A stretch of 64,000 nucleotides of DNA, from the sequence record PV565008.1; one strand, written 5' to 3'. Shown here piece after piece: positions 16,859 through 18,248 of the stretch; position 1 is the first letter of the stretch, and each line of letters opens with the position of its first letter. Position numbers and translations under genes: made by a program. Origin of the DNA: Pseudomonas phage vB_PaePA10145phi1_MKR2. The notes under the pieces were generated by a model, which worked only from the letters and a program-made list of their open reading frames with translations, was not told where the DNA came from and searched no databases.

Positions 16859-18248
16859 CGGATAAGCAAATAACTAAATAAGGGTAAAAACAATGGAACA
16901 AAACGGAGTAGTGTCCGTCTTTGATCCGGCTTCATTTAAAATTGAATGGCGAGATATTCCTGGATACTCAGCATATGAAGCTAGTAACTTAGGAACAATT
17001 CGTCATAAGCGGTTAAATAGAATATGTAAGTTATACAAAGTACCTACTTCAACTGGTTCATATCTGAAGCTGGGTGCAAAAAATGATAATGGCAGAAGTA
17101 ATTCTACATTATCACATATTCTAATTTGTACTGCATTCCATGGTCCATCTCCTGGACCAACATATGAAGTCAATCATAAAGACGGCAACAAACATAATAA
17201 CTTACCATCCAATTTGGAATGGATGACTCGTGGTGAAAACATTGAGCATGCTTACAAAAATGGATTAAGAAAAGAAAATAGACGGGTAATTGCAACTGAT
17301 GTTACTACTGGTGAAAAGACTACTTATTACTCGATGAATGAACTTGCTCGGGCATTAGGAGTTAATAAAAATACGGTTTGGGTTATTATACGTGACCATA
17401 AGACTAAGCCGTATAGAAATAGATTCACATTTGAATTTATTACCGGTGAGACTAAGATTGCTGATCGTGAAAGTACCAAGACAGTTTATGTTTTAGACTA
17501 TAAGACTAAGACATTACATGTGTTTCATAACTTAGCAGAAATGGAACTTGCACTAGGTACTAAACGTAATAAAGCCTATTACCATCTAGTTAGAGGTAGT
17601 AAGGAAATCATGGATGGTCTGGTATTCTCATATACTGCTAATCCTGAAGATTTCCCTAAATATACTCAGAAAGAAATTGAAGCCTCATTTGGAAAACCTA
17701 GTAATGGAAAAGGCACTCCAATTGAAGTAACTGACACCATCTTGAACACTACCAAAGTGTATCCAAGTATTCCACACTTTGCAAGAGATGTCGGTATTAA
17801 GCATCCGAATACTATTCGAAGAGCAATCTTTGAAAAGAATGGGGTGCTTGATAAATACCTTATTAAGTTAATCAAGTCTAGTTCCCCCAATGAGTAATCA
17901 TTGGGATGAGTTCTCTCTAATTGCTGGGATATCCTGTTAAACTAATCTACCACTGCGAGTCGAAAGACAAAGCCAAGGTTTGAAAAAGATTAGGTAGGGA
18001 CAATCAGCAGCCAAGCTCCGTAACATTCCATTTAGGAATAGGAGAAGGTTCAACGACTATTACGGTATCAGGTGCGCCGGTCCTAGAAATAGGATGTAGA
18101 GTCAAGTGACTCGAAATGGGAGACACCCTACTCCGAAAGGAAGGGTGAAGATATAGTCTGGTCTGCATGGCGACATGCAGCAGGTGGTAATTATCATGTG
18201 GTAATTATACTACCGGGTATGGATTAACGACCCATACTGAACATAACG
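16859..18248 (+). mobile_element. Group I self-splicing intron (with HNH homing endonuclease ORF) in the beta-prime gene
   Basis: Core elements: Q AATTGCTGGGA (17919-17929), R GTTCAACGACTAT (18048-18060), S AAGATATAGTC (18148-18158), P9-like hairpin CTGCATGGCGACATGCAG. Ends in G (18248) directly before exon 2, which starts ADFDGD. Boundaries inferred from protein continuity (N|ADFDGD), +/- a few nt. Confidence 0.75.
16893..17897 (+). CDS. HNH homing endonuclease (intron-encoded)
   Basis: EVNHKDGNKHNNLPSNLEW (17166-17222) is the HNH_3 signature; N-terminal NUMOD4-like WRDIPGYSAYEASNLGTIR; two HTH segments (ELARALGVNKNTVWVI, ARDVGIKHPNTIRRAI). Confidence 0.85.
   Translation: MEQNGVVSVFDPASFKIEWRDIPGYSAYEASNLGTIRHKRLNRICKLYKVPTSTGSYLKLGAKNDNGRSNSTLSHILICTAFHGPSPGPTYEVNHKDGNKHNNLPSNLEWMTRGENIEHAYKNGLRKENRRVIATDVTTGEKTTYYSMNELARALGVNKNTVWVIIRDHKTKPYRNRFTFEFITGETKIADRESTKTVYVLDYKTKTLHVFHNLAEMELALGTKRNKAYYHLVRGSKEIMDGLVFSYTANPEDFPKYTQKEIEASFGKPSNGKGTPIEVTDTILNTTKVYPSIPHFARDVGIKHPNTIRRAIFEKNGVLDKYLIKLIKSSSPNE

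Follow-up and report, generated by a model that had tools for sequence, protein, structure and literature searches.

The window analysed here is the whole 64,000-nucleotide stretch of Pseudomonas phage vB_PaePA10145phi1_MKR2 (sequence record PV565008.1). It very probably contains a genuine group I intron, which carries an HNH homing endonuclease gene and is spliced at N/ADFDGD (the slash marks the junction) of a beta-prime-like RNA polymerase (RNAP) gene. We put the probability of this reading at about 93%. The insertion site lies between codons N415 and A416 of the Mg-binding motif NADFDGD. Earlier papers describe the introns of phage phiKZ and structural work uses the spliced sequences, so the finding is correct but already described; this is the known phiKZ gp55/gp56/gp56.1 intron. 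According to the 2024 transcriptome paper PMC10914365, endonucleases of group I introns had been predicted at gp56, gp72, and gp179 in the phiKZ genome analysis of Mesyanzhinov et al. 2002. For the introns of gp55 and gp180, PMC11512511 refers to Ceyssens et al. 2014 and to Mesyanzhinov et al. 2002. A 2025 preprint (PMC12676376) treats gp72 and gp179 as intron-encoded homing endonucleases, both of which can be deleted. What the present analysis adds to this prior work is an explicit helix map, a P1 question with two models, and a catalogue of alternative intron sites and alleles.

Judged by its sequence, the window comes from a phiKZ-like Pseudomonas jumbo phage. With a 2.9-kb query that covers the locus, matches are found in 50 phage records, 47 of them Pseudomonas phages. 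The closest match over the whole locus is vB_Pae10145-KEN51 (99.3%), and DNA identity to phiKZ is 95.3%. The matching phiKZ features are PHIKZ055 (RNA polymerase beta subunit), PHIKZ056 (HNH endonuclease), and PHIKZ056.1. Therefore, the host gene is gp55, which encodes the beta-prime-like N-terminal subunit of the non-virion RNAP (nvRNAP). The upstream gene encodes the nuclear shell protein. Exon 1 matches positions 1-416 of the profile PHROG 2987 ('RNA polymerase beta subunit', E = 1e-165) and exon 2 covers positions 417-477; the two exons are consecutive parts of one profile. The product belongs to the beta-prime subunits of multisubunit RNAP (double-psi beta-barrel with NADFDGD), with PDB matches to the nvRNAP beta-prime of phiKZ and AR9 and to RPB1 homologues.

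If the intron is left in place, the upstream open reading frame (ORF, 15614-16873) encodes a 47.9-kDa protein. An earlier note on this DNA had it stop four codons after ...SVLCLKAPN, and the sequence and the ORF list give RISK and a stop codon at this point. Directly after G18248, the reading ADFDGDQ in the frame of exon 1 is likewise found as that note had it: exon 2 opens with GCG GAT TTT GAC GGC GAT (A416-DFDGD421), followed by CAA. Joining 16858 to 18249 is the only junction that gives APNADFDGD as well as a terminal G, and the predicted product has 487 amino acids and a mass of 55.6 kDa. Three other junctions were considered and rejected. Joining at 16855/18248 gives AP/ADFDGD and loses the conserved N, and joining at 16855/18239 inserts Ile-Thr (APNITADFDGD); the intronless homologues and the solved protein, which keep APNADFDGD, contradict both. 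The junction 16855/18245 lacks the terminal G.

The predicted spliced product is identical, residue by residue across ...LKAPNADFDGDQLNL..., to chain A of PDB 7OGP, whose molecule names are 'PHIKZ055' and 'DNA-directed RNA polymerase,PHIKZ056.1'. The solved structure puts the Mg-binding DFDGD at gp55 residues 417-421 (PMC8287921), and in the predicted product the motif falls at the same residues. In the intronless homologues of phiHQ, 201phi2-1, and Psa21, one uninterrupted match crosses the junction and reads APNADFDGDQ; the phiHQ DNA at this place is CTT AAA GCT CCT AAT GCG GAT TTC GAC. Removal of the intron thus restores the uninterrupted reading frame seen in 7OGP_A and in these homologues. 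At the 3' end, the tail UGAAxAxAxxG/ is common to sibling introns with a mapped 3' splice site. The claim that splicing at N/ADFDGD rebuilds the Mg-binding motif is upheld by the Rfam match and the covariation of P3-P9.2 described below, by the intronless APNADFDGDQ, and by the identity to 7OGP_A. APNADFDGDQLNLTLMPDVYLTK is the tryptic peptide of the spliced product that spans the junction.

Guanosine-dependent self-splicing is predicted from this anatomy, from the covariation, and from frame restoration and identity to the solved protein. Protein data agree with it indirectly: the polymerase isolated from infected cells is listed with a gp55 of 56 kDa and a fused gp71-73 (PMC4666361). Several points weigh against the intron reading. 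The long-read transcriptome of phiKZ (ONT-cappable-seq) gave no spliced reads for the gp56, gp72, and gp179 introns under its conditions (PMC10914365). The protein of PDB 7OGP was made recombinantly and so establishes the junction for the active enzyme, not RNA splicing in vivo. Two features of the P1 region, which is discussed below, count in the same direction: the preferred P1 is short (3 exon bp and 4 intron bp), and with the other candidate guide, AUUGGG, the cleavage site of this allele would be paired U-A, which is non-canonical. PMC10914365, in which no splicing was seen, conflicts with PMC4666361 and PDB 7OGP; the native polymerase has a fused gp71-73 and a gp55 of 56 kDa. The negative long-read result is the sole discordant evidence, and it is outweighed by the protein data.

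The same long-read result would fit a gene that is truly split and unspliced. The ribozyme would then be a dead relic, gp55 would stop at 16871-16873, and a separate gp56.1 protein of 65-72 codons would join the polymerase. Public annotations do list gp55, gp56, and gp56.1 as three separate coding sequences. However, the only start codon in the frame of exon 2 is TTG at 18270, and a start there leaves the catalytic ADFDGDQ untranslated. In addition, the ribozyme core is intact and upheld by compensatory changes, alleles that have lost the endonuclease retain the ribozyme, and native gp55 is listed at 56 kDa, not 48 kDa (PMC4666361). A split gene is therefore very improbable. No terminator-like site is found within the intron on the plus strand, which fits a single transcription unit of exon 1, intron, and exon 2. 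Past the gene, 12 nucleotides (nt) after the exon 2 stop codon, there is a terminator-like hairpin (18479-18502; 10 bp and a T-rich tail, scored on both strands).

The ribozyme itself is recognised by both computational methods that the earlier note had proposed as checks. In the covariance-model search, the Rfam family Intron_gpI (RF00028) matches 17860-18180 over the full model (1-253) with 85.3 bits against a gathering score of 50 (E = 2.8e-20). In the folding of the core, helices P4 to P9 and P9.2 are recovered by RNAalifold; with P3 added as a pseudoknot, 31/61 pairs have compensatory changes. The group I core elements that the note had recognised are present: AATTGCTGGGA, GTTCAACGACTAT, and AAGATATAGTC begin at 17919, 18048, and 18148. 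A second group I intron, hereafter intron 2, occupies 32069-32375 of the window (Rfam hit 32093-32321, 84.2 bits); it interrupts the beta-like nvRNAP gene gp71/gp73 and has no endonuclease gene. The covariation alignment (n = 8) contains the intron alleles of the window, phiKZ, 9Ps-7B, and PA_ZH1 and four sibling introns, namely intron 2, the upstream intron of PA_ZH1, and OMKO1 introns A and B. From P3 to P9.2 there are 61 pairs in 12 helices; 96.5% of the alignment cells are paired, and the compensatory changes counted above alter both sides of a pair. None of 500 shuffles reaches the pairing values of the core, and with slid partners 33-42% of the cells are paired. Note that P4 and P7 are invariant and thus give no covariation information either way. 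The spacer between P7 and the 3' strand of P3 is 57 nt long and holds a covarying hairpin (18099-18112) and a second one (18081-18094) seen by eye. From P7.2 to P9 the identity to the td introns of T4-like phages is about 75%. Because of this similarity in P7-P9, the core appears to be of the familiar phage IA2 (T4 td-like) kind, a class assigned here by resemblance and not by a formal classifier.

The endonuclease gene fits the description of a 334-amino-acid HNH endonuclease ORF given in the earlier note. Its product has the Pfam domains HNH_3 (50 bits, cut-off 24.8, 2e-13), NUMOD4 (25.1 bits, cut-off 23.4), and NUMOD1 in three stretches (103 bits, 7e-30). It also matches PHROG 59 (HNH endonuclease, 8e-51) and I-HmuI (PDB 1U3E, 1.5e-10). 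The gene thus encodes an I-HmuI-like HNH/NUMOD endonuclease, which is predicted to cleave or nick DNA. Its position upstream of the core had been called unusual, but the same layout, an endonuclease gene in the P1 loop, is found in phiKZ gp72 (the gp71/73 intron), and in the upstream intron of OMKO1 and KTN4 the endonuclease gene likewise lies inside a long closing stem. OMKO1 intron B differs, having its endonuclease gene downstream of P9.

In the Wadjak 1 allele, from which the endonuclease is deleted, UAACU-A-AAUAAGG(G)UA pairs with UACCUUAUU-A-AGUUA and closes the P1 loop in both the minimum-energy and the centroid fold. The ribozyme and both strands of this closing stem are kept in two independent endonuclease deletions, Wadjak 1 and PA_ZH1. 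The Shine-Dalgarno sequence of the endonuclease gene, AAGGG (16880-16884), is found 8 nt before the ATG and lies within this P1-extension stem, and therefore translation of the endonuclease from the folded precursor is probably limited. The features are listed in Table 1.

Table 1. Features of the interrupted gp55 locus in window coordinates; paired strands are separated by a slash.
Feature	Position	Strand	Basis
Group I intron, 1390 nt, terminal omega-G at 18248	16859..18248	+	Rfam RF00028 (Intron_gpI); unique junction; phiKZ gp55-gp56-gp56.1 match 95%
Exon 1, phiKZ gp55 homologue; ends GCG CCT AAT (A-P-N415), last base U16858	15614..16858	+	ORF list; PHROG 2987; PDB 7OGP_A
Exon 2, phiKZ gp56.1 homologue; 72 codons and stop	18249..18467	+	PHROG 2987; PDB 7OGP_A
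Homing endonuclease gene, phiKZ gp56 homologue; 334 amino acids, in P1 loop	16893..17897	+	Pfam; PHROG 59; I-HmuI
P1 5' strand, preferred model: exon AAU, then intron C-GGAU; splice site 16858/16859	16856..16863	+	Pairs with 17876-17883
P1-extension stem, 5' strand UAACU-A-AAUAAGGGUA	16871..16886	+	Minimum-energy and centroid folds
P1-extension stem, 3' strand UACCUUAUU-A-AGUUA, inside end of endonuclease ORF	17856..17870	+	Folds; invariant in 11 alleles
Preferred internal guide GUCUAGUU (GTCTAGTT), two bases before P2	17876..17883	+	Sibling layout; allele pairing
P2 hairpin CCCAAUGA-GUAA-UCAUUGGG, 8 bp	17886..17905	+	Rfam P2 alignment; fold -10.8 kcal/mol
Catalytic core	17912..18180	+	Rfam alignment; RNAalifold; pair counts
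Core element AATTGCTGGGA	17919-17929	+	Sequence
Core element GTTCAACGACTAT	18048-18060	+	Sequence
Core element AAGATATAGTC	18148-18158	+	Sequence
P3	17912-17/18118-23	+	Added as pseudoknot
P4	17922-27/18004-09	+	RNAalifold
P5	17932-35/17997-18000	+	RNAalifold
P5a	17942-48/17987-93	+	RNAalifold
P6	18010-12/18047-49	+	RNAalifold
P6a	18016-19/18041-44	+	RNAalifold
P7	18055-60/18153-58	+	RNAalifold
P7.2-like hairpin	18099-103/18108-112	+	RNAalifold; covarying
P8	18124-28/18143-47	+	RNAalifold
P9	18163-69/18174-80	+	RNAalifold
3' peripheral region, ends with omega-G 18248	18183..18248	+	P9.1, P9.2, tail
P9.1 hairpin	18183-18214	+	Minimum-energy fold
P9.2	18216-22/18232-38	+	RNAalifold; compensatory changes in 5/7 pairs
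3' tail UGAACAUAACG, last base omega-G 18248	within 18183..18248	+	UGAAxAxAxxG/ kept in siblings

Two sequences are candidates for the internal guide of P1, and GUCUAGUU is more likely than AUUGGG. In the preferred P1, the pair at the 5' splice site is the wobble U16858.G17881. The intron bases GGAY are kept in 11 alleles, followed by 3-7 variable nt, and the pairing of AAU/C-GGAU with GUCUAGUU, including U.G at 16858, is found in 11/11 alleles. The pair between 16863 and 17876 is C-G, U.G, or U-A in 9/11. The guide forms a colinear stack on the closing stem of the endonuclease loop. Its position is also that of three sibling introns, in which the guide is followed by 2-3 nt, P2 with a GNRA loop, a joiner, and P3.

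The earlier note had proposed an IGS-like ATTGGG at 17899 (IGS, internal guide sequence). Its perfect 6-bp complementarity to the exon stands: within the 61 nt that precede P3, no sequence other than AUUGGG is complementary to all six bases of the exon end CCUAAU (p ~0.04 from shuffles). Its position does not, since it lies at 17900-17905, and as the guide it is less likely than GTCTAGTT: it forms the 3' strand of P2 and would pair U-A at the cleavage site here. If it does set the 5' splice site, cleavage would follow U16858 through a U-A pair, or U16855 through U16855.G17903, the only U.G of the helix in this allele; the latter would give AP/ADFDGD without N415. Six alleles have A at base 17900. 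The other 5 of the 11, phiKZ among them, have G and read GUUGGG, which would give the canonical U.G at 16858. Base 17876 is G in 8 alleles and A in 3, and the combination of A17876 with A17900, which weakens both pairings, is absent among the 11. A scan of IMG/VR for further alleles of the P1/P2 region found nothing.

Two siblings speak for AUUGGG. Intron 2, used as a control, has the same type of helix, GGU/AAU:AUUGCC, and is cleaved after its U.G wobble; in OMKO1 intron B, where P2 is missing, the guide is found 3 nt before P3. The intron 2 junction HGG/KGV, fixed by 7OGP chain C and the intronless HPP-Temi, indicates that the U.G rule is obeyed in this intron family. GUUGGG in phiKZ and AUUGCC in intron 2 (for GGUAAU) favour AUUGGG, but GUCUAGUU upstream of P2 appears to fit better when the intron 2 junction and the layouts are compared. 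The case against AUUGGG is that an 8-bp hairpin with a GNRA loop locks it in at the position of P2; to free it for pairing with the exon, the 5' domain would have to give up about 10 kcal/mol. Viable phages are unlikely to dispense with the universally conserved N, and APNADFDGD is retained in every intronless homologue. With GUCUAGUU as the guide, all 11 alleles have U.G at 16858. We therefore regard AUUGGG as a possible guide but the less likely of the two.

The motif split by intron 2 is the universal HG(N or G)KGV, and the phiKZ counterpart of this intron carries gp72 in its P1 loop. At intron 2, the ORF annotated for exon 1 overruns the splice site by one codon (AAT) and a stop codon. A junction GGN/KGV is ruled out by HGGKGV in 7OGP chain C and in the intronless HPP-Temi, which places the splice site at 32068/32069.

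The P2 hairpin has further features. The stop codon of the endonuclease gene (17895-17897) lies in its loop, and its 5' strand CCCAAU/GA mimics the exon end CCUAAU/, where CCC AAU is read in frame as the endonuclease ORF ends. It is improbable, though conceivable, that P2 acts as a conformational switch in which two guides compete; such a switch could gate the choice of the 5' splice site or couple endonuclease translation to splicing. If this were true, splicing from the internal pseudo-site would join the endonuclease and exon 2 in one reading frame. Two other roles of the hairpin, an ancestral P1 or a site of internal processing, were considered and dropped: they have no support, and the endonuclease would lose its stop codon if cleavage took place there.

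With GUCUAGUU as the preferred guide, the intron may work as follows. Exon 1, the intron, and exon 2 would be transcribed as one unit, and the ribozyme core P3-P9.2 (17912-18238) would fold. The long stem of P1 and its extension would close the endonuclease loop of about 1 kb and bring U16858 to the core. Guanosine would attack after U16858, the exons would be ligated after G18248, and the ligated mRNA would encode the nvRNAP subunit of 487 amino acids and 55.6 kDa. In co-infecting relatives, alleles that lack the intron are presumably nicked or cut by the endonuclease close to the insertion site, so that repair would copy the intron in. The activity and target of the endonuclease and the occlusion of its ribosome-binding site are presumed here. 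The evidence for homing is circumstantial: presence or absence of the intron varies among close relatives, the endonuclease is degraded in some alleles, and OMKO1 is recoded at the site.

Three intron sites are found in Phikzvirus within a stretch of about 130 nt in the active-site region of gp55: N379/P380 (FHRN/PTLQRG), N415/A416 (APN/ADFDGD), and D421/Q422 (DFDGD/QLNL), which correspond to 16750/16751, 16858/16859, and 18266/18267 of the window. Introns of gp55 in other phages are located at 173-1422 and 1549-3072 of the OMKO1 locus, at 2652-2956 of the PA_ZH1 locus, and at about 1155-2490 of the KTN4 locus. They occur in different combinations, and their endonuclease genes are intact, degraded, or absent. 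The active-site region of gp55 looks like a homing hot spot.

OMKO1 lacks the intron at N415/A416 and its NADFDGD is uninterrupted (locus 1423-1548, compared with window 16751-16858 and 18249-18266). Around the insertion site, 7 synonymous third-position changes are found in 10 codons; before that, 97 nt are the same in OMKO1 and in the window. This pattern is as expected from co-conversion with a foreign intron, or from recoding of the target of the endonuclease or guide. Introns at different sites also share parts. P5-P6 of 9Ps-7B (locus 1575-1700) and of FBPa36, compared with window 17925-18050, resembles that of OMKO1 intron A. Likewise P9-P9.2 of phiKZ (locus ~4060-4131) resembles intron A, and that of the window (18160-18248) resembles intron 2. 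These apparent swaps of whole modules (P5-P6 and P9-P9.2) suggest recombination among sibling introns at different sites.

For annotation, gp55, gp56.1, and the ORF that separates them, listed as three coding sequences, are in fact a single gene for an essential polymerase subunit and a mobile element; only the spliced mRNA encodes the catalytic Mg-binding motif. The locus is a textbook example of how a homing intron can lodge in an essential gene at its most conserved codons. It occurs in a phage family in which the intron endonuclease PhiPA3 gp210 has been shown to be a weapon between co-infecting phages, and in which transcription in the phage nucleus is uncoupled from translation.

The closest known system is the phiKZ gp55/gp56/gp56.1 intron, with the same gene, site, 334-amino-acid endonuclease, and layout, locus DNA 95.3% identical, and a spliced protein equal to 7OGP_A. 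The window allele differs in that its intron starts with CGGAU (GGAC in phiKZ) and base 17900 is A (G in phiKZ). Its P9, P9.1, and P9.2 are also different, an alternative compensated set held in common with intron 2. The phiKZ gp71/gp72/gp73 intron of the beta-like subunit is a sibling ribozyme with nearly identical P4, P7, and P9, and it too splits a universal catalytic motif (HGG/KGV). It differs in the host gene, the guide (AUUGCC), the short P5, and the lack of P5a, and in the window it has no endonuclease gene.

The td intron of T4 and the T-even IA2 introns have the same R and S core sequences, GUUCAACGACUA and AAGAUAUAGUC, and also carry an endonuclease ORF in a peripheral loop and occupy conserved active-site positions. 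In T4, the intron ORFs are located in the P6a or P9.1 loops and encode GIY-YIG endonucleases (I-TevI, I-TevII) or a different HNH protein. Unlike them, the ORF described here is in the P1 loop and is I-HmuI-like. PhiPA3 gp210 is an HNH homing endonuclease encoded in a putative group I intron of the virion RNAP beta gene, adjoining the catalytic aspartates (Birkholz et al. 2024; PMC11620839). Both systems thus have an HNH endonuclease intron that interrupts a jumbo-phage RNAP subunit gene, but that of PhiPA3 concerns the virion polymerase, another subunit, and another site, and a competitive function has been shown for gp210 (PMC11620839). Finally, I-HmuI of the Bacillus phage SPO1 DNA polymerase intron (PDB 1U3E) matches in its N-terminal HNH region and is also intron-encoded in a phage polymerase gene, while gp56 has roughly double its length and contains NUMOD1 in three repeats.

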